Of a stretch of DNA of 64,000 bases, positions 2,991 through 41,377 are shown one piece after another; position 1 is the stretch's first letter, and the number at the start of each line of letters is the position of its first letter. Made by a program: the position numbers and the translations under genes. This DNA is from an uncultured virus (IMG/VR IMGVR_UViG_3300042894_003697). Its lineage: Duplodnaviria > Heunggongvirae > Uroviricota > Caudoviricetes. Location: IMG/VR virus record IMGVR_UViG_3300042894_003697. One strand, written 5' to 3'. The notes beneath the pieces are model-generated. The model had not been told where the DNA came from. It made no database searches and was given only the letters and a program-made list of their open reading frames with translations.

Positions 2991-4198
2991 ATATTCCACA
3001 CGATAAATTCTGTGTATTGCCCTGGATCAGCTTAGAAGCCAGTCCTGTTGGTACAGTGCGTCCTTGTTGCTTGGCCGACGACGAAATTGTTGACAACAAC
3101 AATGAAAAGTTCAGTTTAATGACTGCTGACTTTGCTGACATACAAAACAGCACACACATGCGCACATTGCGTGAACAATTTCTAGCAGGTGAAAAACCAC
3201 AGACATGCCGCAAGTGCTGGAATGAAGAACGTGCAGGACGCACTAGCAAGCGTATGCACACCTTGGACAGAATGAAACACATGGGCATCACGTCAGACTG
3301 GACTGCCGATTCCAAGCCCGTGATGTTCCTGGATCTTAAACTGGGCAACATCTGCAACCTAAAATGTCGTATATGCGGATCATGGAGTTCAAGCCAATTT
3401 GCCACAGAAGAACTGGCACAATTGCCCACGGAAGAAAAAAAGTCCAGTTTTGCATATCAAATGTTACAAGCAGGTGCTTGGCCTAGAGATAATACTCAGT
3501 TTTGGGGAGAAATTGATCAGCATTTAAATGATATACGCTATATTGAATTCACTGGCGGCGAGCCATTTATGATTCGAGAGCATTTCCAAATGCTACAGGG
3601 CATCGTGGATCGTGGTATTGCACATCAAGTTGAAATACATTATAATACAAATGGCACACACTACCCTGAAGAAGCCGTTGAAATTTGGAAACATTTTAAA
3701 ACTGTGGAAATAGCATTTTCAATTGATGACCTAGGCGCAAGATTTGAATATCAGCGCACCAACGCGGTATGGTCAGACGTGGTGTTCAATATTGATCGTT
3801 TCCGTTTACTAAGAGAAGACTATCCTAACATTCAGTTACAATGCTGTGCCACTGTGAATGTGTTTAATGTGCGCTATATTGATCAACTGGCACAATGGAT
3901 CAACCAGCAGGCCTTTGATTTTGTGTACTGGAACATGATGCACGATGCATGGTATTTCTCAATTGCTACACTGCCCGCGATGGCCAAAGCAGCCATTGCA
4001 GATCATTTACGCACATGTGATGTTCCTGTCAAGTGGCGCGGGGAATTTGACAACATAATTGAATTTATGAATGGTGGTGCTGACTCTGATGGATTTATAT
4101 TGCGTATGAAAGTGCGTGATCTAGATCGCAAACGGAATCAGAACTTGGCCACAGTGGCTCCAGAATTGGCAGAATTAATTGAATACACCAAAACCTGA
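2987..4198 (+). CDS. Radical SAM protein with N-terminal SPASM/twitch-like domain
   Basis: CVLPW…PCC…CRKC; CNLKCRIC; FTGGEPF. Confidence 0.9.
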   Translation: MNIPHDKFCVLPWISLEASPVGTVRPCCLADDEIVDNNNEKFSLMTADFADIQNSTHMRTLREQFLAGEKPQTCRKCWNEERAGRTSKRMHTLDRMKHMGITSDWTADSKPVMFLDLKLGNICNLKCRICGSWSSSQFATEELAQLPTEEKKSSFAYQMLQAGAWPRDNTQFWGEIDQHLNDIRYIEFTGGEPFMIREHFQMLQGIVDRGIAHQVEIHYNTNGTHYPEEAVEIWKHFKTVEIAFSIDDLGARFEYQRTNAVWSDVVFNIDRFRLLREDYPNIQLQCCATVNVFNVRYIDQLAQWINQQAFDFVYWNMMHDAWYFSIATLPAMAKAAIADHLRTCDVPVKWRGEFDNIIEFMNGGADSDGFILRMKVRDLDRKRNQNLATVAPELAELIEYTKT

Positions 4199-5477: not shown

Positions 5478-6531
5478 AGTAGTATTAAGAAACCCGTTAG
5501 ATAAAACAGACACAGTTGACTACACTATTGTAGTCAACGATTCACCAATGGGTCTGCGTTGGTATCATGCATTGCAAGATTTACTAAAACGAAACAAATA
5601 TTTAGAAAAGAATTTTTGTTTTTTAGGATTTCCAGATAGCTCACGAGATTTAGATTATATTTGCAAAGAACTGACCTGGGCTAAAAATACCATTAATTGT
5701 TTTTTTGCAGGCAAATACACTATCAAAGAAATTTTTTCTCCTGACTCATTACGCACAGGTCTTGATCCTAATCAAGACCTAATGAATCAACTGCACAATC
5801 ATTTTGAACATTTACAAGGTACAGTTTGGGAACTAAGTGATTGGTATAAACGTGCAGATTACACTACAAAATTTGCTATTAGACAATTAAATCTTCTATG
5901 CCACGAAGCAGAAAGTTTGATATTATCACAACGTAAAAAAGTAACAAATCCAGACTGGGTACGCTCTAGTCAAATCACTACATTTTTGAATGCTGCTCGA
6001 ATTAATTTTCCAAATGAATATAAAACAACCTTTGATGAAACTAGATACGATAGAAAATTTGGCGAAGTATATTTGCACTGGACACAGATCGGCAAAACTC
6101 TTTATGAGGTTTACAGAGACGAACAAGGTGTAGACATTGATCAATCTGTGTGTGATGCTATAACGCATCTACGTTATTATTCTGGAGAATTTGACATTGA
6201 ATGGGGCCAGGATGTTGTTTACGGTACGCATTATTGGCACAAAAAAGAAATAGACAAGTTTAAAGAGTGGCTAGTAAAACAAGGATTTGATCCAGAAGAC
6301 TCACAATACAATTATGGATATCATCCAGTGGGGCAAGTTGATTTACAAAATAGTTTTGGAACTACTGATTTCAAACAAATTTTGTCAATGTTAAGTAAAC
6401 ATTTAGATATATACAAGATAGAAGCCAATGGAGTGTCTGCAACTTATGATTATACATGGAGTGACCCTGACTATTATCAAAAACAAATTGCATGTTTGAC
6501 ACCTGGTTACAATCATAGTTCAAAAATATAA
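5431..6531 (+). CDS. Hypothetical protein (true start may be TTG at about 5467)
   Basis: Long ORF continuing the operon; no recognised motif. Confidence 0.75.
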   Translation: MPGLMYLNGGCKLKVKVVLRNPLDKTDTVDYTIVVNDSPMGLRWYHALQDLLKRNKYLEKNFCFLGFPDSSRDLDYICKELTWAKNTINCFFAGKYTIKEIFSPDSLRTGLDPNQDLMNQLHNHFEHLQGTVWELSDWYKRADYTTKFAIRQLNLLCHEAESLILSQRKKVTNPDWVRSSQITTFLNAARINFPNEYKTTFDETRYDRKFGEVYLHWTQIGKTLYEVYRDEQGVDIDQSVCDAITHLRYYSGEFDIEWGQDVVYGTHYWHKKEIDKFKEWLVKQGFDPEDSQYNYGYHPVGQVDLQNSFGTTDFKQILSMLSKHLDIYKIEANGVSATYDYTWSDPDYYQKQIACLTPGYNHSSKI

Positions 6532-8139: not shown

Positions 8140-8827
8140 CTTGTAGCCAGGCAACTACTTGATCTGCAAAAGCCTGGTGAGCCGCTAAAAAATAATGACC
8201 CCAGTCTGTGTGCGGATACTTATTAGTCTCACACCAAGCACAAAAATCTGTATCAATTGCCCAATTAACTCTATCAGTATACTCAACAGGATGAAAGCTG
8301 TTGATATTGATCACTCGTATTCCGTGTTGTGTTGCTAGTGCATTTAGTGCCAGGATATTTTTTAATTTATTCTGGTTGCTTGCTTGCTGGTTGAGATGGA
8401 ATTTATTCCATTCATCAGCATACGCCAAATATTCCTCTTCAAAAGATATTTTACCGCCGTCATTATCTCCTGACAACGCATAGGTACTAGATTTATATCG
8501 AGTCCAATGCTGCCTGCCCATAGACATTGGTAACCAACATTTATCAATATCGTGCCATAGTTCAGTTCGAGAACAGCCAGTCCAGCAGGCTATAACTACA
8601 TCATTGGTGGTTAAATTTTTTAATTGTTCAATAAAAATTCTGAACATTGCATCATTGCTGCCTCCAGATATGGCATAGTTCATTGGCTCATAACCTAATC
8701 GTCGAGCTACTGAAACAGGATAACTGTTTAACCAACCAAATGATCCAGGATTGTCTATGGTAATGCTAGTGTCCTGGTACATCTCTGCACCAGCAGCATG
8801 GCTGCAACCTAAAATCAGTGCCTTCAT
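8123..8827 (-). CDS. SGNH/GDSL-like hydrolase-fold protein
   Basis: LGCSHAAG, NYAISGGSND and a C-terminal His; ATGA overlap with the upstream gene. Confidence 0.6.
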   Translation of the reverse strand: MKALILGCSHAAGAEMYQDTSITIDNPGSFGWLNSYPVSVARRLGYEPMNYAISGGSNDAMFRIFIEQLKNLTTNDVVIACWTGCSRTELWHDIDKCWLPMSMGRQHWTRYKSSTYALSGDNDGGKISFEEEYLAYADEWNKFHLNQQASNQNKLKNILALNALATQHGIRVININSFHPVEYTDRVNWAIDTDFCAWCETNKYPHTDWGHYFLAAHQAFADQVVAWLQVNCKP

Positions 8828-9852
8828 AGGTATGTTTCTAATCCACCGCGTCGACGCAGATCCTGTGTGCAACAACTTATTCCGCCATCCCAAAAATAAC
8901 TGTGTCTTAATTCGCAAATGATAGGTTCAATATGATGGCGATGGCAAAAATCAAAAACATTTTTATTGTACGCACTGAATATGACATGACTTTCATCTAG
9001 CACCAGACAGTTGACATCAAACACAGTTTCGGCAACAAAGCCAGTCCATTTATTAAGATAAGTGTCTACAAACTGAGTAAATTCAGGTGTAGGAGTTTGT
9101 CCTTGCACATACCAAGCACCCGGATTTGCATCATATTTAAACTTTCCAACTTCCATGGCAGCCCATATACTAGAGTCCCAAATTTTTAAGACTTCCCAAC
9201 CCGGAAAGTCTTCAGCCAGATGCAAATGCATATCGTGTTTGCTTGATAATATAACACCAGGTTTAAGAATAGCAAACACAGCATCGCCATGTCCGTCGGT
9301 TACAGCTTCGTGAATGCGATAGCCTTCACCCAGCATGTTGTCCACAATCCAACGAGTCTGATCAGGCCGCAAGAAATCTGAGTTGTCAAAGAACACATCG
9401 CGCCCCACACGCACAATACAACTGGCACTGGCACCATTTAGGATACAGTCTTTGTCCCAACGACTCTTGTGTGGATTAACAACTTGATCGCCAAATTCAG
9501 CACAGATGTTATCTAGTTCTTCTACGTTGATCACACGCAACAGTTTATCACCCAGGGTGATTTGCCAATCTCGTGGCGTCAGTGGCGGCAGCGGAACACC
9601 TCCTCCTCCTTCAGTTTGACGCCAAACAAATGCGTCTTTCCAGGGCAAGCTGGGGCGATGTACTTGAGCCCCATACTTCTCAATGGTTTTTTGCAGGCCG
9701 TCGAGATCCTCTTCAGTTTCGTGGAGAATCTGTTGCAGTTGATTACGCACTTGCGGATTGTCAATAAAATCAAAGTAATCGGGTGGGTAGGCGCGACCTA
9801 CAATGACCTCTTCAAGAGGTTGCCAGCTGGTGTAGGAGTTAATTTTGTTCAT
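8824..9852 (-). CDS. Amidinotransferase (glycine amidinotransferase-like)
   Basis: SWQPLEEVIVG, PRD, GHGD, FDVN, WDGGISCCTQDLRR with the catalytic Cys region. Confidence 0.85.
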   Translation of the reverse strand: MNKINSYTSWQPLEEVIVGRAYPPDYFDFIDNPQVRNQLQQILHETEEDLDGLQKTIEKYGAQVHRPSLPWKDAFVWRQTEGGGGVPLPPLTPRDWQITLGDKLLRVINVEELDNICAEFGDQVVNPHKSRWDKDCILNGASASCIVRVGRDVFFDNSDFLRPDQTRWIVDNMLGEGYRIHEAVTDGHGDAVFAILKPGVILSSKHDMHLHLAEDFPGWEVLKIWDSSIWAAMEVGKFKYDANPGAWYVQGQTPTPEFTQFVDTYLNKWTGFVAETVFDVNCLVLDESHVIFSAYNKNVFDFCHRHHIEPIICELRHSYFWDGGISCCTQDLRRRGGLETYL

Positions 9853-11112: not shown

Positions 11113-12717
11113 ATGTTTGACGTATTTTATTCCGGAATCAAGCCCAATTTATTTCCTCATGAGCAGTCAGCCACTGATATCGAGCATGCAATAACTCTGA
11201 GTGGTACAAGATATTTTTGGTGGATAAATTACTTATCGGACTACTCAGGCTTTGATTTTCTTTGGGAGCCAGTATCATGGGAAAAAGATCAAACACATGT
11301 ATGGCCCAGTCAACATCAAGAAAATGGCGGTACTTATCTTGTGCCTAAACAACACAGCAGTGAAGTCAACAGAAAACATAATAAAATACCTCGTGTAAAA
11401 AGTGTACCTATCATAGGAATTGACCACGGCAATGGATTAAACTGTACTGTTGATAGATCTAGTAGATTTATAAATGACTATCTAGGAACTCTTAAGCGTG
11501 TGTTGTCAACAGTGAAAGATGAGTATGTTTGGATAGTTAGCAGTGTATGTGATTATTCTGATTTTGATTTTACCTGGCATCCCAGTGAATGGCAGGCCGC
11601 AATGTTGCATGTATTTCACAGCAACGAACAAAAATTTGGAGACACGTTTTACATACATGTGCCTAGCTTTCTTAAAGGAACTGAGAATTTAGTGTTGTTA
11701 GAATGGTTCAATACCATTCACTTTGTAGAAGATATTCAAGTTCCACGCCGCCCTGTACCTGTGGTACAACACACGCATGACACTCATGTACAAGCAGTTT
11801 GGGAATATGACTTTCAAGATCCAGTGGTGGAATTTACTGTTGATAATTATCGTGGGGGTGTTCCTACAGTTAATCTTTGGCGGCAGTCTGTGCGTGATGT
11901 AACACCGTTGACTCCAGGAGCATCTCGAGTGCTGGTGCCAAGAGATGCTAAAAATCATTTAAAAACACAATTGTACGATTATCCAGTCATAAACAAAACA
12001 CATCGAACTGTTGGAAAAGACAATCCGTTAGATATTGTGTTTATCAGCAACGGTGAGCCCATGGCTGAAGATAACTGGCTTCATCTCTTTGACACATGCA
12101 GCCAACTCAACAGAATTACTCGTATAAATGGTGTCAACGGCCGTGTGGCAGCTTATCATGCAGCAGCCGCAGCCAGTAACACACCTTGGTTTTTTGCAGT
12201 GTTTGCTAAACTACAGGTAGAATCTATCTTTGACTGGTCCTGGCAACCAGATAGATTACAAGAACCCAAGCACTATATTTTTTATGCAGCCAATCCTGTG
12301 AATGGCCTGGTGTACGGACATCAAGCAATGATTGCTTATAATAAAAAACTAGTGTTAAACAACTCTGGTGTCGGATTGGACTTCACGCTAGACTCAGCAC
12401 ATGAAGTTGTGCCTGTTATGTCTGGCACTGCTTATTATTGTGAAAGTGCATGGGTGTGTTGGAGAACTGCATTTCGTGAAGCACTTAAACTTCGACACAG
12501 TTTGCCCAACGTAGAAAATGAATATAGACTTAAATGTTGGTTAAAAGAAGACTCTGGTACTATTGCCAATGGACATTGGAGCCATAAAGGTGCACAAGAT
12601 GCAGTGGAGTTTTATGAATTAGTAAACGGGGATTTTGCCGAGCTCAAAAAAAGCTATGACTGGGCTTGGCTGGCCAGCTATGCGTTTGTTAAACGGAATC
12701 TAACAACTGATCAATGA
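11113..12717 (+). CDS. Putative glycosyltransferase-like multidomain protein
   Basis: 534 aa; DIVFISNGE…GVNGRVAAYHAAA GT-A-like C-terminal region with an internally repeated FDFxWxP motif. Confidence 0.55.
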   Translation: MFDVFYSGIKPNLFPHEQSATDIEHAITLSGTRYFWWINYLSDYSGFDFLWEPVSWEKDQTHVWPSQHQENGGTYLVPKQHSSEVNRKHNKIPRVKSVPIIGIDHGNGLNCTVDRSSRFINDYLGTLKRVLSTVKDEYVWIVSSVCDYSDFDFTWHPSEWQAAMLHVFHSNEQKFGDTFYIHVPSFLKGTENLVLLEWFNTIHFVEDIQVPRRPVPVVQHTHDTHVQAVWEYDFQDPVVEFTVDNYRGGVPTVNLWRQSVRDVTPLTPGASRVLVPRDAKNHLKTQLYDYPVINKTHRTVGKDNPLDIVFISNGEPMAEDNWLHLFDTCSQLNRITRINGVNGRVAAYHAAAAASNTPWFFAVFAKLQVESIFDWSWQPDRLQEPKHYIFYAANPVNGLVYGHQAMIAYNKKLVLNNSGVGLDFTLDSAHEVVPVMSGTAYYCESAWVCWRTAFREALKLRHSLPNVENEYRLKCWLKEDSGTIANGHWSHKGAQDAVEFYELVNGDFAELKKSYDWAWLASYAFVKRNLTTDQ

Positions 12718-28344: not shown

Positions 28345-28815
28345 TTATGCTATTTTTAATCCTCTAAAACGATCAGCTGCATAAGTGGCTGCAAAAGCTT
28401 CTGGTTTGACCAATGGTACCACATTACAAGTACCACGGATATAACCAATGGCCTGACTGACCACATTGCTGCTGGCATGCTCGTCTTTGGGATTGATATC
28501 TAAATGAACCTCGACCAATCTATCTTCTAAAACATCTGCTAGTTTCAAATACAACTCACTAACTTTGTAAACTTCGGTCATTAATCGAGTATTTGGCCGG
28601 TTGGCTTTTTGGTCGTAGTCACGCTCTCTTGTGACTTCCCCAAACAGTTTGCATCCATTGTTGCCGCCAATATGAACCACAATAGCGGCAGTATAGTCAG
28701 CGTACCACACTTGACCAACTTTGATTCTTTCTGAATCTACTCCAATATAAATGCGGGTGTCTGGAGATTGGGAGTTTATAAAGTTTTTGATTTCTTTAAT
28801 GTTAAATTTTCTCAT
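28345..28815 (-). CDS. RNase H-like YkuK-family protein
   Basis: IYIGVDS, RLMTEV, EVHLDIN, KPEAFAATYAADR. Confidence 0.8.
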   Translation of the reverse strand: MRKFNIKEIKNFINSQSPDTRIYIGVDSERIKVGQVWYADYTAAIVVHIGGNNGCKLFGEVTRERDYDQKANRPNTRLMTEVYKVSELYLKLADVLEDRLVEVHLDINPKDEHASSNVVSQAIGYIRGTCNVVPLVKPEAFAATYAADRFRGLKIA

Positions 28816-29265: not shown

Positions 29266-29496
29266 TTACTTAATTTTTCTTGCTGAATCAAGACTGATTT
29301 CGCCTGTTTGAAATTCCAACAAGGCATTAACTATAGGATAGATATGTGCAGGATTTTCACTGGCACGATGCTGACGAGCAATTTCTCTTGCACGAGCCGA
29401 AGCCAGGATAACCAACATATATCTGTCACCGCCAGAATTTTTTACACAGAGTTCTGTGTCTATTTCGGTGCCACGGCTTAATTTCGAGCGATTCAT
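29266..29496 (-). CDS. rpoZ: RNA polymerase omega subunit-like protein
   Basis: GDRYMLVILASARAREI and PIVNALLEFQTGEI match the omega motifs (N)RFxLVxxAxxRARQ and K.xxxALxEIxxG; AAGGA SD. Confidence 0.75.
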   Translation of the reverse strand: MNRSKLSRGTEIDTELCVKNSGGDRYMLVILASARAREIARQHRASENPAHIYPIVNALLEFQTGEISLDSARKIK

Positions 29497-32203: not shown

Positions 32204-32280
32204 TGGCCTGACTGGAGGGATTTGAACCCCCGACCGACGGATTAGAAATCCGTTGCTCTATCCTACTGAGCTACAGTCAG
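32204..32280 (-). tRNA. tRNA-Arg(TCT)
   Basis: Cloverleaf; loop TTTCTAA. Confidence 0.93.
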
Positions 32281-32284
32281 AAAT

Positions 32285-32382
32285 TACCATATAAAAACAC
32301 ACTATAAAACACCCTGGTTGTTAAGTGTCACTACCGTCCCGGTACCACCCGGGGTAAGCGTGTAATGTGTTTTTATATGGTA
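32285..32382 (-). ncRNA. Hairpin RNA family, copy A (core CACAUUA/UAGUGUG)
   Basis: 20-bp inverted repeat 32285-32304/32363-32382; one G·U pair on the minus strand. Confidence 0.6.
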
Positions 32383-32453
32383 GGACGTATTGGATTTGAA
32401 CCAATGACCAATAGATTAAAAGTCTACTGCTCTACCAACTGAGCTAACGTCCC
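32378..32453 (-). tRNA. tRNA-Lys(TTT)
   Basis: Cloverleaf; loop CTTTTAA. Confidence 0.93.
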
Positions 32454-32494
32454 ACTGCTCTTTTCACTGTCCATTTGGACTCTCCTTACTTTAA

Positions 32495-32581
32495 AGCATA
32501 TTGAAACACACTAACTACCTTGGTATGTACTCAAGTTCATGGAACCGCTACGACCCTATCTTTAATGTGCTTCAATATGCT
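32495..32581 (-). ncRNA. Hairpin RNA family, copy B
   Basis: 20-bp inverted repeat 32495-32514/32562-32581; two G·U pairs on the minus strand. Confidence 0.6.
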
Positions 32582-32830
32582 CTGCATCCCCCGGCGGTAA
32601 TTATAGAGTATCAAGATATGACGCTATCATACCCATCACACACTCCTTCCACCCGCTTCCCGACAGGGACCGTTCTCGTATTGCTAACGCCGGTTAGGTT
32701 AGACCGCCGGTTACCCGGAAGCAGATTCACCATCCCCATTACTGGGGGCAGGCTCTTGCTCGAACCACCCGTACTTGTCACGTACTTCATCCTGTGGGTC
32801 ACAGTAGCCGACGACACTCGGCATGTTCTT
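32582..32830 (-). ncRNA. Unnamed GC-rich structured RNA
   Basis: Multiple hairpins, including two GUAA tetraloops on the minus strand; 8-bp long-range helix; lies inside the tRNA operon. Confidence 0.6.
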
Positions 32831-32906
32831 TGGCTCCTCGACCTGGGTTCGAACCAGGGACAACTTGATTAACAGTCAAGTGCTCTACCAACTGAGCTAT
32901 CAAGGA
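32831..32906 (-). tRNA. tRNA-Asn(GTT)
   Basis: Cloverleaf; U1-A72, G73. Confidence 0.93.
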
Positions 32907-32911
32907 ATAAA

Positions 32912-33110
32912 TTAGTTGTCTAGCTACTCTCACCACAAGAGCCCTAGACCGAGCAGTTACTCTGTCCACCTTTTTTTTTATTTAGACGGACAAGGTCCGC
33001 CTTTGTGATTTCTCAAGTCGCTTTCAATCAAGCCTTAGCGGTAGATCCAATGCACCGAGCTATTAAGGTGTTGCAATTACCTAACTCTTTTACGTTTAGT
33101 TAACACGGGA
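32912..33110 (-). ncRNA. Unnamed structured RNA
   Basis: Hairpins GGCGGAC/GUCCGUC, GUCUAG/CUAGAC and CUCU/AGAG; no credible ORF. Confidence 0.5.
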
Positions 33111-33112
33111 TT

Positions 33113-33188
33113 TGGTTGCAGAGGAGGGATTCGAACCCCCGACCTCCAGGTTATGAGCCTGGCCAGATACCACTTCTAACACTCTGCG
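33113..33188 (-). tRNA. Initiator-type tRNA-fMet(CAT)
   Basis: C1·A72 mismatch; loop CTCATAA. Confidence 0.9.
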
Positions 33189-33197
33189 ATAACTTAT

Positions 33198-33272
33198 TGG
33201 CAGGGGGTATAGGGATCGAACCTATGCATGACGGAATCAAAATCCGTTGTCTTACCTCTTGACGAACCCCCA
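33198..33272 (-). tRNA. tRNA-Gln(TTG)
   Basis: Cloverleaf; loop TTTTGAT; G73. Confidence 0.92.
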
Positions 33273-33278
33273 ACAACA

Positions 33279-33354
33279 TGGTACTCGGTACCAGATTCGA
33301 ACTGGTGTACTCACCGTGAAAGGGTGATGTCCTGGGCCTCTAGACGAACCGAGC
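33279..33354 (-). tRNA. tRNA-Glu(TTC)
   Basis: Cloverleaf; loop CTTTCAC. Confidence 0.92.
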
Positions 33355-33363
33355 AAACTATCT

Positions 33364-33438
33364 TGGCGGTCTCAAGGGGTAACGATCCCCTTCTTCAAGC
33401 GTGACAGGCTTGTGTGCGTCCGTGAACACTTTGAGACC
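33364..33438 (-). tRNA. tRNA-Asp(GTC) with atypical T-loop (ATCGTTA)
   Basis: Cloverleaf; loop CTGTCAC; GCCA. Confidence 0.88.
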
Positions 33439-33439
33439 A

Positions 33440-33593
33440 GTATCATTGTAAAGTGCTATCGTGCATAAATTTAGACGTAGGGTGCTTCCCTGTCAAAGCC
33501 GATGCAGTTATTTCAGGATCCGTTCCCGGCCAGTTGGACCCGAATAGTGTAAGCGTCCCTACACGATACCCTAATAGCACTTTACAATGATAC
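33440..33593 (-). ncRNA. Rod-like 154-nt structured RNA
   Basis: Perfect 20-bp terminal inverted repeat 33440-33459/33574-33593 plus nested helices. Confidence 0.6.
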
Positions 33594-33653
33594 CATTTGA
33601 TGGCATCAGATTTAAATTTTTAAAGAACACAGTTAATTTCTTAACATGTGTGT

Positions 33654-33682
33654 ATTATAGCAAACTATTGATTTTAAGTCAA
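33654..33682 (-). promoter_or_regulatory. Sigma70-type promoter for the third tRNA/ncRNA cluster
   Basis: TTGACT-17-TATAAT. Confidence 0.85.
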
Positions 33683-33727
33683 CTAATACCCGTGCTAGTT
33701 GTAAGGTTATTGGTGTCCTTACATCTA

Positions 33728-34168
33728 TTAGAGTACACTATACTCGTAATTTACAGTTTCGGTGTTTTCTCTAAAAACTACTGCACCATTTTTTAAATGA
33801 AATCGCCGGGCCATTTCTGTAGGCGGGCTCAGTGTAACGAATCTATTGATAGACTGATTAGTTTGACGTATGTGATTTACTGCATCAAAAATCAAACGAC
33901 GGCCAGCACCAGGTTCATAACTCCATATAGTGTAAAATATTGCAATAACTGGATCATGAGCAACTCGGAACAATTCGTTTTCAGAAATTGGTATACTGTC
34001 CTGATAGCTTACGCATGTGATTGCAGTAACTTTATCATTGCTATCTCTACCGACAAAAATATCGCGATTGACCCCTACTCTTTCATTGTGAGGAATAGAT
34101 GGACGTACTGGATCATGAGACAACAACTCAAAAAATTTGTCAGTAGTGGATTTAATTAGGTGTAGCAT
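33728..34168 (-). CDS. Hypothetical protein, possible GNAT-like fold
   Basis: FYTIWSY…GAGRRLI…TLSP…ARRFHLKNGA. Confidence 0.6.
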   Translation of the reverse strand: MLHLIKSTTDKFFELLSHDPVRPSIPHNERVGVNRDIFVGRDSNDKVTAITCVSYQDSIPISENELFRVAHDPVIAIFYTIWSYEPGAGRRLIFDAVNHIRQTNQSINRFVTLSPPTEMARRFHLKNGAVVFRENTETVNYEYSVL

Positions 34169-34231
34169 GGATTCTCTCTATTTACACAAGATTGCAAAAG
34201 TTATAAAAATTTCTAGTAGATCATTAAGACA

Positions 34232-34323
34232 TGGTAGCCCCGGCGGGAATCGAACCCACATGAACCAATTATCTGTTGCTTACGGGATATAAATCCGCCG
34301 TTTTACCATTAAACTACAGGGCC
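34232..34323 (-). tRNA. Atypical 92-nt tRNA-Ile(TAT)-like RNA with an extra arm
   Basis: Acceptor, D and T arms and ACCA are intact; the anticodon region is expanded. Confidence 0.7.
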
Positions 34324-34327
34324 AATG

Positions 34328-35098
34328 TTATAAATTTTTAAACGCTTTCTTTATAATTGCACTGCGATCCAGTTTAGAATTGGCACCCAGCACAATCACT
34401 GCATACTGTTGCGTGTTGTGTTCCACCAACATGGCTACACACCACCCGGCGGCCGTAGTAAATCCAGTCTTACTCACAGTCACACGGTCAAACTCTGCCA
34501 ACAGTTGTTGAGAAGTGTGGCTAAGATTCACAGTGTTGCTACGGGTTTGGTTTGACTTTTTTAGCAATACCGTGGGCTGACTGCTGACTTCTTGTATAAA
34601 CCAATAACCGGCAGCAATCTGCACCATCTCTGCCAGATCCTGTGCAGTGGTCACATTGAACACGCCTAACCCTGATGGATCTATGAATTTAGTATTTCGA
34701 AGATCCCACATTCTAGCATGCTGATTCATTTTGGCTATAAATGCAGATCGGCCCCCAGGATAGTCCTGTGAAATGGCTTCGGCTGCACCGTTGTCACTGC
34801 TGATCAACATGGCCTGCAACAACTGCTCTCTGGTATACTGGCCTGGCGGCAATCGACTACTGGTGTTTCTCCCCAGTGTTATCGGCTGTTGTAAATCTCT
34901 ATTGTAATCCAATGTCACCATGGCAGTCATCAGCTTGGTCACACTGGCCATGGATCGCACCTGATCCACATGACGACTCAGTTCCGTGCGTTGTGCATTG
35001 ATGTTGTAGACCAACACTGTGGGCTCACTGGTGCGAGCTGTGGCATTGGTCAACACTGCACAAAAAAACACAGTAGCAAATAATTTCATATTCTTCAA
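34328..35098 (-). CDS. D-alanyl-D-alanine peptidase, family S11 (PBP7/DacA-like)
   Basis: Signal peptide; SVTK (SxxK), SDN, KTG. Confidence 0.9.
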   Translation of the reverse strand: MKNMKLFATVFFCAVLTNATARTSEPTVLVYNINAQRTELSRHVDQVRSMASVTKLMTAMVTLDYNRDLQQPITLGRNTSSRLPPGQYTREQLLQAMLISSDNGAAEAISQDYPGGRSAFIAKMNQHARMWDLRNTKFIDPSGLGVFNVTTAQDLAEMVQIAAGYWFIQEVSSQPTVLLKKSNQTRSNTVNLSHTSQQLLAEFDRVTVSKTGFTTAAGWCVAMLVEHNTQQYAVIVLGANSKLDRSAIIKKAFKNL

Positions 35099-35155
35099 TT
35101 TGTAAAAATTGTAGCAGGTGATTTACCCACACGTAACACATTGTTTCCAATGTGT

Positions 35156-35232
35156 GTATCGAAGCACACTAGCCACTCTGTTTCTTCTGTATGCCTACAG
35201 ATTGTATTCATTTGTCTAATGTGCTTCGATAC
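35156..35232 (-). ncRNA. Hairpin RNA family, copy C
   Basis: 17-bp inverted repeat 35156-35172/35216-35232 with the same U·G pair. Confidence 0.6.
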
Positions 35233-40980: not shown

Positions 40981-41377
40981 GTTATTTTCTGTTACGAGGT
41001 ATAACTACCCTAAGCAGTGTTTAGACTGCTAAAGATTCCTTGGCTGTACGAGCTGAGAACTTGACGTTCTTACCACTTACAGTTACGGTTGTATTTGCTT
41101 TTGCATTTACTTTTTTTGCTTCTACAACCGGGTTACCCCTGTCCTACGGCTTCTGCATTGCCGAGCTGTCCACTAATTTACTTGTTGCCCTGTCGAATCT
41201 AGGTCAGGCCCATCAAAAAGACTTTTTATAATCCAAAACATATAGTTGACTACAACTAAGATGCCCCACATATAAACCCAATGCCAATTCTCAAACATAA
41301 AAATCCTTTTGGTGGACCTGGGGGGATTCGCACCCCCGTCCAGAACACTTTTCTCTTTGCTTCATACAGCAATAACT
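40981..41377 (-). ncRNA. ssrA: Circularly permuted (two-piece) tmRNA
   Basis: The piece ending CAGGUCCACCA (41310) precedes GGGCCUGACCUAGAUUCGAC (starts 41211); G3·U70; tag frame AKANTTVTVSGKNVKFSARTAKESLAV*. Confidence 0.9.
41173..41298 (-). CDS. 41-aa hydrophobic peptide starting in the tmRNA intervening segment
   Basis: AAAGGA SD 5 nt before ATG; MFENWHWVYMWGILVVVNYMFWIIKSLFDGPDLDSTGQQVN. Confidence 0.5.
   Translation of the reverse strand: MFENWHWVYMWGILVVVNYMFWIIKSLFDGPDLDSTGQQVN

Follow-up and report, generated by a model that had tools for sequence, protein, structure and literature searches.

RNase III sites in phage transcripts belong to textbook knowledge, and in the leader-trailer stalks of 16S and 23S ribosomal RNA (rRNA) a long flanking helix allows RNase III to free the enclosed RNA from a polycistronic stable-RNA transcript. 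The finishing of RNA ends by exonucleases and RNase P is likewise well established. Transcripts of transfer RNA (tRNA) also give rise to other RNAs, which are freed by the tRNA-processing machinery, as for the Escherichia coli 3'ETS-leuZ sponge, the tRNA-microRNA (miRNA) units of murid herpesvirus 68 and the species 1 and 2 RNAs of T4. To our knowledge, none of these three relies on a single, unvarying RNase III-type stem that carries dozens of exchangeable loops. This study concerns a stretch of 64,000 nucleotides (nt) from a large, uncultured lake-water phage of the Caudoviricetes (IMG/VR IMGVR_UViG_3300042894_003697), referred to in its full length as the window, which carries 17 tRNA genes and a permuted gene for transfer-messenger RNA (tmRNA), all on the minus strand. 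Three hairpins of the window, A, B and C, are interpreted with moderate confidence, on the basis of sequence comparison, as copies of a portable processing stalk cut by the RNase III of the host; their stems probably function in the excision of tRNAs, tmRNA and small 'cargo' RNAs from long transcripts.

The determinants recognised by E. coli RNase III are described, in the accessible part of the work of Pertzev and Nicholson (PMC1540722), for the minimal substrate uR1.1, where the site is an 11-base-pair (bp) helix between the cut and the loop. According to the same part of that source, the proximal box is composed of G-C, A-U or U-A, A-U, and A-U or U-A, with a 2-bp middle box; in the distal box, position 1 is U-A and position 2 is U·G, these being pairs 10 and 9 from the cut. 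Distal position 2 is stringent, the change of UG to AU decreasing cleavage more than 30-fold and A-U being excluded from natural substrates; G-C at proximal position 4 makes catalysis 14-fold lower in E. coli, and the sequence and position of the tetraloop are irrelevant to recognition (PMC1540722, same part). In the case of permuted tmRNA, the accessible part of another source (PMC11915505) ascribes cleavage to tRNA-processing enzymes and describes an intervening sequence which is not present in the mature two-piece tmRNA.

Hairpins A, B and C (Table 1) have their stem core in common, including a single U·G wobble. The window contains three matches to the pattern of this core, CACACTA-N30-60-TAATGTG, against an expectation of 0.03, and none of 100 shuffles reaches this number. 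The original prediction, made from the letters of the window alone, had described inverted repeats with a common core at these places, and both sequence and folding confirm them; its helix length of 17-20 bp is right for A (20 bp) and C (17 bp), and B proved to be 22 bp long (32493-32583) instead of 20. On the minus strand, A, B and C fold with energies of -42.6, -35.7 and -34.3 kcal/mol (z = -5.0, -7.0 and -8.6), a result equalled by 0 of 200 shuffles. On the plus strand the G·U pairs become A·C mismatches, leaving uninterrupted stems of 18 bp in A, fewer than 14 bp in B and 14 bp in C, and the energies are -39.4, -22.8 and -29.5 kcal/mol, the minus strand being better by 3-13 kcal/mol. A covariance model (R1), built from an alignment of 89 family copies (A1), was run over the whole window and matched A, B and C only, with 56.2, 73.8 and 59.3 bits respectively on the minus strand; the scores on the plus strand are 12-40 bits lower. 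The earlier observation that every mismatch is G·U on the minus strand only is upheld, and an RNA structure on that strand is supported by the tRNA orientation and outer-stem covariation reported below. The enclosed 58, 47 and 43 nt had been called unrelated, and they align no better than shuffled sequences, 64, 198 and 235 of 500 shuffles reaching the observed local alignment scores. As had also been noticed, the 5' arm of A takes in the last 5 nt (UACCA) of tRNA-Lys. A sigma-70-like promoter match (35326-35297) precedes hairpin C by about 65 nt. A terminator scan called none of the three hairpins, whose 3' flanks (AUUUC, AAAGUA and ACACAU for A, B and C) are without a U run, and intrinsic terminators were rejected on these grounds.

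Table 1. Hairpins, predicted cuts and neighbouring features, in positions of the window
Feature	Position	Strand	Remarks
Hairpin A	32285..32382	-	20-bp stem, 58-nt loop, 1 G·U; occupies the whole tRNA-Lys/tRNA-Arg spacer
Hairpin B	32493..32583	-	22-bp stem, 47-nt loop, 3 G·U; immediate 3' neighbour of the 247-nt RNA, 39 nt 5' of tRNA-Lys
Hairpin C	35156..35232	-	17-bp stem, 43-nt loop, 1 G·U; within the leader of the unit formed by D-Ala-D-Ala carboxypeptidase and tRNA-Ile
Predicted cuts, hairpin A	between 32374 and 32373 (5' arm), between 32292 and 32291 (3' arm)	-	by the uR1.1 rule
Predicted cuts, hairpin B	between 32574 and 32573 (5' arm), between 32501 and 32500 (3' arm)	-	by the uR1.1 rule
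Predicted cuts, hairpin C	between 35228 and 35227 (5' arm), between 35159 and 35158 (3' arm)	-	by the uR1.1 rule
tRNA-Arg(UCU)	32204..32280	-	begins 5 nt past the 3' arm of hairpin A
tRNA-Lys(UUU)	32378..32453	-	encoded 3' ACCA paired into the base of hairpin A
Structured RNA, 247 nt	32584..32830	-	G+C-rich, uncatalogued 'knotted' phage family; between tRNA-Asn and hairpin B
YkuK-like RNase H-fold protein	28345..28815	-	PF04308, E 4.6e-16; phrog_11311

The stem is widespread beyond the window. When the two core arms were searched for with a gap of 30-60 nt, at least 121 viral-contig loci were found, with 86 distinct loops among them, and the same arms at a gap of 0-29 nt added 42 further viral-contig loci. 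A control pattern of the same composition, with the 3' arm reversed, found 3 loci, as against at least 160 for the true stem, and the family first described as having three members is thus three-membered within the window only. The covariance model detected further diverged copies flanking other loci, up to about eight within 2 kb in contig L079. A relative (L002-L004), with 86% identity in the neighbouring peptidase, carries hairpins at corresponding places; those of L003 lie at 9001-9113, after tRNA-Lys, at 11857-11951 and at 5832-5887. The first has the core CAUAUUC/GAGUAUG, in which the U·G is retained between two compensatory changes, and a loop unlike that of the window. Four genomes at least 90% complete contain 1-3 copies each, all within a few kb in the stable-RNA cluster. 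The sequence of the window was found in lake-water or freshwater DNA metagenomes only and in no RNA run, and a search of 50,697 phage records for close cultured relatives gave tRNA matches only. In the cultured Vibrio phage P018-4, a single copy of this core, at 102,612-102,641 of the record, lies in an intercistronic hairpin between two small open reading frames (ORFs); as in T7, the helix has an internal loop beneath it.

Among bacterial and archaeal genomes (596 Gb), a slightly stricter pattern retrieved only two hairpins, both away from tRNAs. These (L126 1501-1558, in an Oribacterium metagenome-assembled genome, and L127 1501-1557, in Arthrobacter sp. H20) are intergenic, their outer stems being paired throughout; both share the U·G of the family and have no tRNA within 1.5 kb; the Arthrobacter copy forms an A+T-rich island beside G+C-rich genes. 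In L079, about eight family hairpins alternate between 1980 and 3650 with segments of about 100 nt, most of which end in ...CCA and are not called as tRNAs by ARAGORN (one is given as 'tRNA-???'), and they may represent an array of unrecognised tRNA-like RNAs. Another phage contig, L015, has a match to a group I intron (RF00028, 53.4 bits) at 3615-3808 on the minus strand, in a hairpin-rich tRNA array.

Rfam 15, applied to the window at the gathering threshold, recognised tRNAs and tmRNA_permuted only, and the hairpins match no family. At E values up to 5-10 they draw only weak RAGATH-30 and miRNA-precursor matches, and the likeness of copy C to RAGATH-30, with 21 bits against a cut-off of 59.5, was judged to be due to chance. 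Neither YrlA nor Y_RNA was matched between 32000 and 35700 at E values up to 5, a TROVE gene not having been searched for. A literature search, with subscription-only papers outside its coverage, found no description of the hairpin family.

Two further structures of the window lie close to these subjects. Directly past hairpin C, at 35136-35155 on the minus strand, a perfect 8-bp mini-hairpin with a GAAA loop has the CACAUU core without the wobble as its stem; in its counterpart in L003 the U·G is retained and the loop is GCGA. Hairpin D (33438-33595, minus strand; 23 bp, 3 G·U, 112-nt interior) ends exactly at the start of tRNA-Asp, and the best sigma-70-like promoter match (33682-33654, 11/12, with TG) precedes it by about 55 nt; the hairpin was rejected as a fourth member of the family, having a different stem sequence and no match to the family model.

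The search pattern fixed the U·G and the U-A in 85 of the 89 copies of alignment A1 and left ten outer pairs free, and these ten pairs covary. Both sides change in 13 of the 20 pairs, and 91.5% of the cells are paired, compared with 77.9% in shuffles and 31-49% with slid partners. The claim that the outer stems differ and still pair is borne out in this way, and the covariance model and homologue search suggested for the family have yielded many homologues together with a covarying outer stem. All 89 copies contain an 11-bp helix, made of the core and the pair below it, in which the near-invariant pairs are A-U and A-U and, five pairs on, U·G followed by U-A, then the closing pair. The two A-U pairs are present in 89 of 89 copies, the U·G in 88 and the U-A in 88. 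In 21 distinct stems outside the exact-pattern selection, one row of which is from the wrong strand and one misaligned, AA/UU is found in 21, U-A in 20 and U·G in 17, with C-G in 3 and A-U in none, and the remaining positions vary with compensation.

These near-invariant pairs coincide with the determinants of E. coli RNase III. A check of the T7 record gave AAGGUCAUUC-GCAA-GAGUGGCCUU as the upper stem of R1.1 and AAGGCCACUA...UAGUGGUCUU for R18.5. The family core, AAGCACAUUA...UAGUGUGYUU, is identical to R1.1 in 7 of 10 pairs, including the U·G at the same place, and R18.5 has C-G at distal position 2, as do 3 of the 21 stems above. When the alignment is laid on the boxes, columns 14 and 15 (A-U, A-U) fall on proximal positions 3 and 2 and column 16 on proximal position 1, column 21 (U·G) on distal position 2 and column 22 (U-A) on distal position 1, column 23 being the closing pair, and the spacing between the two boxes is exactly that of R1.1. 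We infer that the invariant pairs are the RNase III proximal positions 3 and 2 and distal positions 2 and 1. A, B and C agree with the E. coli uR1.1 rules in helix length (20, 22 and 17 bp), distal box and proximal positions 2 and 3. Stems of 11 bp or more number 309 in the window, and 7 of them show the boxes at R1.1 spacing, namely A, B, C, the hairpin of the tmRNA gene (41214-41311) and 3 others. Five phage records, the four genomes at least 90% complete included, contain no gene with an RNase III or double-stranded RNA-binding domain (dsRBD) (0 of 5 each for PF14622, PF00636 and PF00035), which implies the enzyme of the host and led to the rejection of a phage-encoded RNase III or dsRBD protein as the cutter.

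The T7 R sites and uR1.1 are accordingly the closest likeness: they share with the family the 11-bp upper helix, the AAG.../...CUU base, the U·G and then U-A two pairs below the loop, and the irrelevance of the loop, and an internal loop or mismatch just below the helix is found in C, in the tmRNA-type copies and in the Vibrio phage hairpin. The family differs in being located in arrays of tRNA, tmRNA and small-RNA genes, whereas the T7 sites lie between mRNAs; most tRNA-type copies extend the helix by about 9 further pairs, down to the CCA, and structured cargo of up to about 70 nt is carried in the loop.

The genomic context of the family was assessed on 121 oriented loci among the matches listed, 40 of them with flanks of 300 nt only. 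In these loci, ARAGORN places 536 tRNAs on the strand of the hairpin and none on the opposite strand. Hairpins start 6-9 nt after the end (CCA) of an ARAGORN tRNA in 26 of 122 cases, so that the CCA forms part of the paired stem base, and tRNA-Lys(ttt) is the upstream neighbour in 16 of these 26. In a second subtype, the hairpin follows ...CCACCA and is itself followed by GGGG. Among 11 such loci submitted to Rfam, 10 hairpins are located within a match to tmRNA_permuted, alpha_tmRNA or beta_tmRNA, between the CCA of the acceptor piece and the GGGG of the coding piece, and they consequently constitute the intervening sequence of a permuted tmRNA. As the intervening sequence has no place in mature tmRNA, the element sits there where RNA must be removed. 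The permuted tmRNA gene of the window itself (41021-41371, minus strand) has an intervening hairpin of 13 bp (41214-41311) whose sequence is unrelated to the family and which also carries U-A/U·G and AA/UU at R1.1 spacing.

Loops range from a bare tetraloop, or 2 nt, up to about 70 nt of unrelated sequence. The scan at gaps of 0-29 nt revealed 'empty' copies, in which a tetraloop (GAAA, GAAU, GUAA or another) closes the stem, and one tmRNA intervening sequence is a hairpin with a 2-nt loop, which indicates that the element has the stem, and not the loop, as its core. Three tetraloop copies (L148, L156 and L165), with an A run before the core and a U run after it, have no tRNA context and look like bidirectional intrinsic terminators.

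Taken together with the position inside tmRNA precursors, the match to the boxes favours RNase III, one of the two enzymes named when the hairpins were proposed to be processing signals; the other, a YkuK-like nuclease, is not supported as a requirement, its gene being present in 6 of 10 contigs. In the mechanism proposed here, the long hairpin would be transcribed together with the tRNAs, and its inner 11 bp would form the recognition helix for host RNase III. The enzyme would cut on the 5' side of the pair beneath the two A-U pairs, and with a 2-nt offset on the other arm. In hairpin A, such cuts would leave tRNA-Lys with its CCA and 4 nt, and tRNA-Arg with a 12-nt leader. The predicted cut leaves the CCA and 4 nt on the upstream tRNA in 23 of the 26 tRNA-adjacent copies; in 12 copies of the tmRNA type it falls 0 or 1 nt past the CCA, with a leader of 2-3 nt on the coding piece. 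The upstream RNA would thus be freed with a short trailer, to be trimmed by exonucleases, and the downstream RNA with a short leader, to be removed by RNase P, while a small hairpin RNA, made of the upper stem and loop and bearing a 2-nt 3' overhang, would be released. Since RNase III ignores whatever lies beyond the 11-bp helix, the loop could act as a slot, now holding many different small structured RNAs.

Several observations weigh against this interpretation. Proximal position 1 is G-C in 33, G·U in 54 and A-U in 2 of the 89 copies of A1, and A-U in 12, G·U in 5, G-C in 3 and C-G in 1 of the 21 stems outside the pattern; proximal position 4 is G-C in 40, A-U or U-A in 17 and unpaired in 30 of the 89. 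Of the six determinants of the E. coli enzyme, these two hence fit poorly, often departing from its optimum, which may not be that of the host. About 1% of unrelated stems fit the boxes by chance. The family model, run against T7, found no R site and a single, unrelated match (E 3.4), so that the likeness lies in shared determinants and not in homology, and the copies are confined to the stable-RNA cluster instead of being spread between mRNAs as in T7. In the hairpin of the window tmRNA, one predicted cut falls 2 nt inside the CCA, the other falling exactly at the 5' G of the coding piece. Finally, conservation of the middle CACA/UGUG pairs goes beyond the known requirements of RNase III, a possible sign that the helix has a different reader.

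The contents of the loops bear on the question of such a reader. The 162 pattern matches listed comprise 112 distinct loops, of which 7 contain a T-loop-like GTTCRANNC, and the 95 with a length of 15 nt or more group into 65 clusters. Among 12 sequences (B of the window and 11 contigs) with different flanks, the B-type loop hardly varies. The A-type loop recurs in L010, L011, L046 and L067, its two inner hairpins being maintained through 6 compensatory pairs, and the C-type loop is also present in L083 and L115, with different outer stems. When folded in isolation, the loops give z = -0.8 for A, z = +0.6 for B and a modest z = -2.0 for C. Loops differ at orthologous positions in related phages, and such swaps fit the indifference of RNase III to what stands above the 11-bp helix. 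Given the two types conserved across phages, some loops may be functional small RNAs. It can tentatively be suggested that the RNase III stem serves the phage as an 'expression slot', in which one self-excising stalk would deliver dozens of short structured RNAs from the tRNA arrays of large freshwater phages to act on the host. Such RNAs may be decoys for tRNA-targeting defence nucleases, sponges or partners of the 247-nt RNA beside copy B, and some may mimic the tRNA elbow through their T-loop. The early idea of a constant handle with a variable guide or decoy loop may still apply: the two loop types compared are conserved, and the empty tetraloop versions speak for the stem alone as the core.

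The main alternative, rather unlikely and drawing on the same loop data, is that the constant stem is primarily a handle for another protein, which may be encoded by the phage, such as the YkuK-like one, or be an unknown RNA-binding factor, that the loops are functional small RNAs (decoys, sponges or guides), and that processing is secondary. The conservation of the entire 10-bp core, including CACA/UGUG, beyond the known needs of RNase III would be explained by such a protein, and the near-invariance of the B-type loop, the compensatory pairs of the A-type loop, the number of loop clusters and the T-loop-like motif are all in agreement with functional cargo. The YkuK-like protein noticed near the hairpins in the window was confirmed (Table 1), and among the six contigs having this gene it is located 1-6 kb from a hairpin in four and 12-21 kb in the other two. 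However, the gene is present in no more than these six of ten large hairpin-bearing contigs, and is absent from one of the four genomes at least 90% complete, namely the 100%-complete G008, in which the hairpin is present. A YkuK-like nuclease as the dedicated enzyme was rejected on account of this incomplete co-occurrence; as regards YkuK/DUF458, the accessible part of PMC3985635 offers a fold assignment only. Moreover, the empty tetraloop copies and the tmRNA copy with its 2-nt loop show a stem that works without cargo, the A and B loops alone are not unusually stable and that of C is modestly so, and the invariant pairs are exactly the boxes of RNase III.

Cleavage by RNase III is also to be preferred to a function at the DNA level, in which the hairpin would be a folded single-strand recombination site or cassette boundary, similar to the attC sites of integrons, shuffling tRNA and small-RNA genes between phages. 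The architecture, with a conserved stem and a variable centre, is alike, single-stranded DNA tolerates G·T pairs too, copy A and the L003 hairpin at 9001-9113 both follow tRNA-Lys with different loops, and the order of tRNAs varies between relatives, 18 being counted in the window for this comparison and 25 in L003. This explanation is nevertheless very improbable: a Pfam scan found no integrase or recombinase among the 72 ORFs of the window, the RYYYAAC...GTTRRRY cores are absent from the arms of A, B and C on direct reading, and copies inside tmRNA precursors require a role as RNA. T-loop motifs and covarying loop helices are RNA features as well, the conserved pairs fit an RNA enzyme, and homologous recombination between conserved arms needs no dedicated site.

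The chances are slimmer still for a selfish palindromic repeat, resembling a miniature inverted-repeat transposable element, that has spread in phage genomes and folds merely when transcribed. The many copies with terminal inverted repeats and variable interiors, their density in L079 and the two bacterial matches away from tRNAs are what such a repeat would lead one to expect. On the other hand, the inner stem is conserved and the outer ends vary and covary, the opposite of termini recognised by a transposase, and no transposase was found in the window (72 ORFs, Pfam scan). The orientation is strictly that of the tRNAs (536 versus 0), a systematic search for target-site duplications not having been made; placement at CCA ends and in tmRNA intervening sequences is exact, and complete genomes have 1-3 copies only. 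A tRNA-like acceptor stem, a group I P1 helix, an HDV-like or other ribozyme, a retron non-coding RNA, a promoter or MotA box and a terminator were dropped for want of Rfam support, a reverse transcriptase, a downstream catalytic core or a U run.

A processing stalk cut by RNase III can also be set beside the other systems in which RNAs are released from stable-RNA transcripts. With the rRNA stalks the family has in common an RNase III-type helix within a stable-RNA transcript, and it differs in being a compact local hairpin of conserved sequence which encloses an RNA of 2-70 nt; the main products here are probably the neighbours (tRNAs and tmRNA pieces) and not the enclosed RNA. Like 3'ETS-leuZ, the tRNA-miRNA units of herpesvirus 68 and the T4 RNAs, it places a hairpin directly after a tRNA. 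In relation to permuted tmRNA, the family hairpin corresponds, in the 10 loci, to the intervening sequence between the acceptor CCA and the 5' end of the coding piece; by contrast, it is also found between ordinary tRNAs, and the accessible part of PMC11915505 mentions no conserved RNase III-type intervening hairpin.

With respect to Rfam 15 and the literature searched, a sequence-conserved, R1.1-like stalk confined to arrays of tRNA, tmRNA and small-RNA genes appears to be new, as do its role as intervening sequence in the two-piece tmRNAs of phages and the dozens of interchangeable loops mounted on it. It would provide a concrete rule for the cutting of giant phage arrays of tRNAs, tmRNA and orphan RNAs, with cut sites predicted to the nucleotide, and it suggests that RNase III, beside the tRNA-processing enzymes, may mature the two-piece tmRNA of phages. 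As an RNA family outside Rfam, it marks gene boundaries in otherwise unannotated stretches and brings to light dozens of candidate small RNAs in its loops. A compact 11-bp stem tolerating any insert could, furthermore, be a modular tag for the release of RNAs from long transcripts.

The surroundings of the hairpins in the window present additional features. The tRNA and tmRNA genes have sugar-nucleotide, radical-SAM and other auxiliary genes as neighbours. The 3' end of the 247-nt structured RNA continues into the 5' arm of hairpin B, and this RNA has no Rfam match; in L003, its counterpart (about 8436-8631) is directly followed by tRNA-Ala, with no hairpin between the two. Between tRNA-Met and tRNA-Asn, an ORF-free gap of 206 nt (32907-33112, minus strand) with a run of nine A may contain another small RNA or a promoter or terminator region. 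The tRNA-Asp(GUC) at 33364-33438 on the minus strand is called by ARAGORN and gives no match to the Rfam tRNA model, either at the gathering threshold or at E values up to 5, and it may be an unusual tRNA. Lastly, a 76-amino-acid ORF between tRNA-Gly and tRNA-Pro (29266-29496, minus strand) shows a match, just over the cut-off, to the RNA polymerase subunit Rpb6/omega (PF01192, E 4.5e-06).

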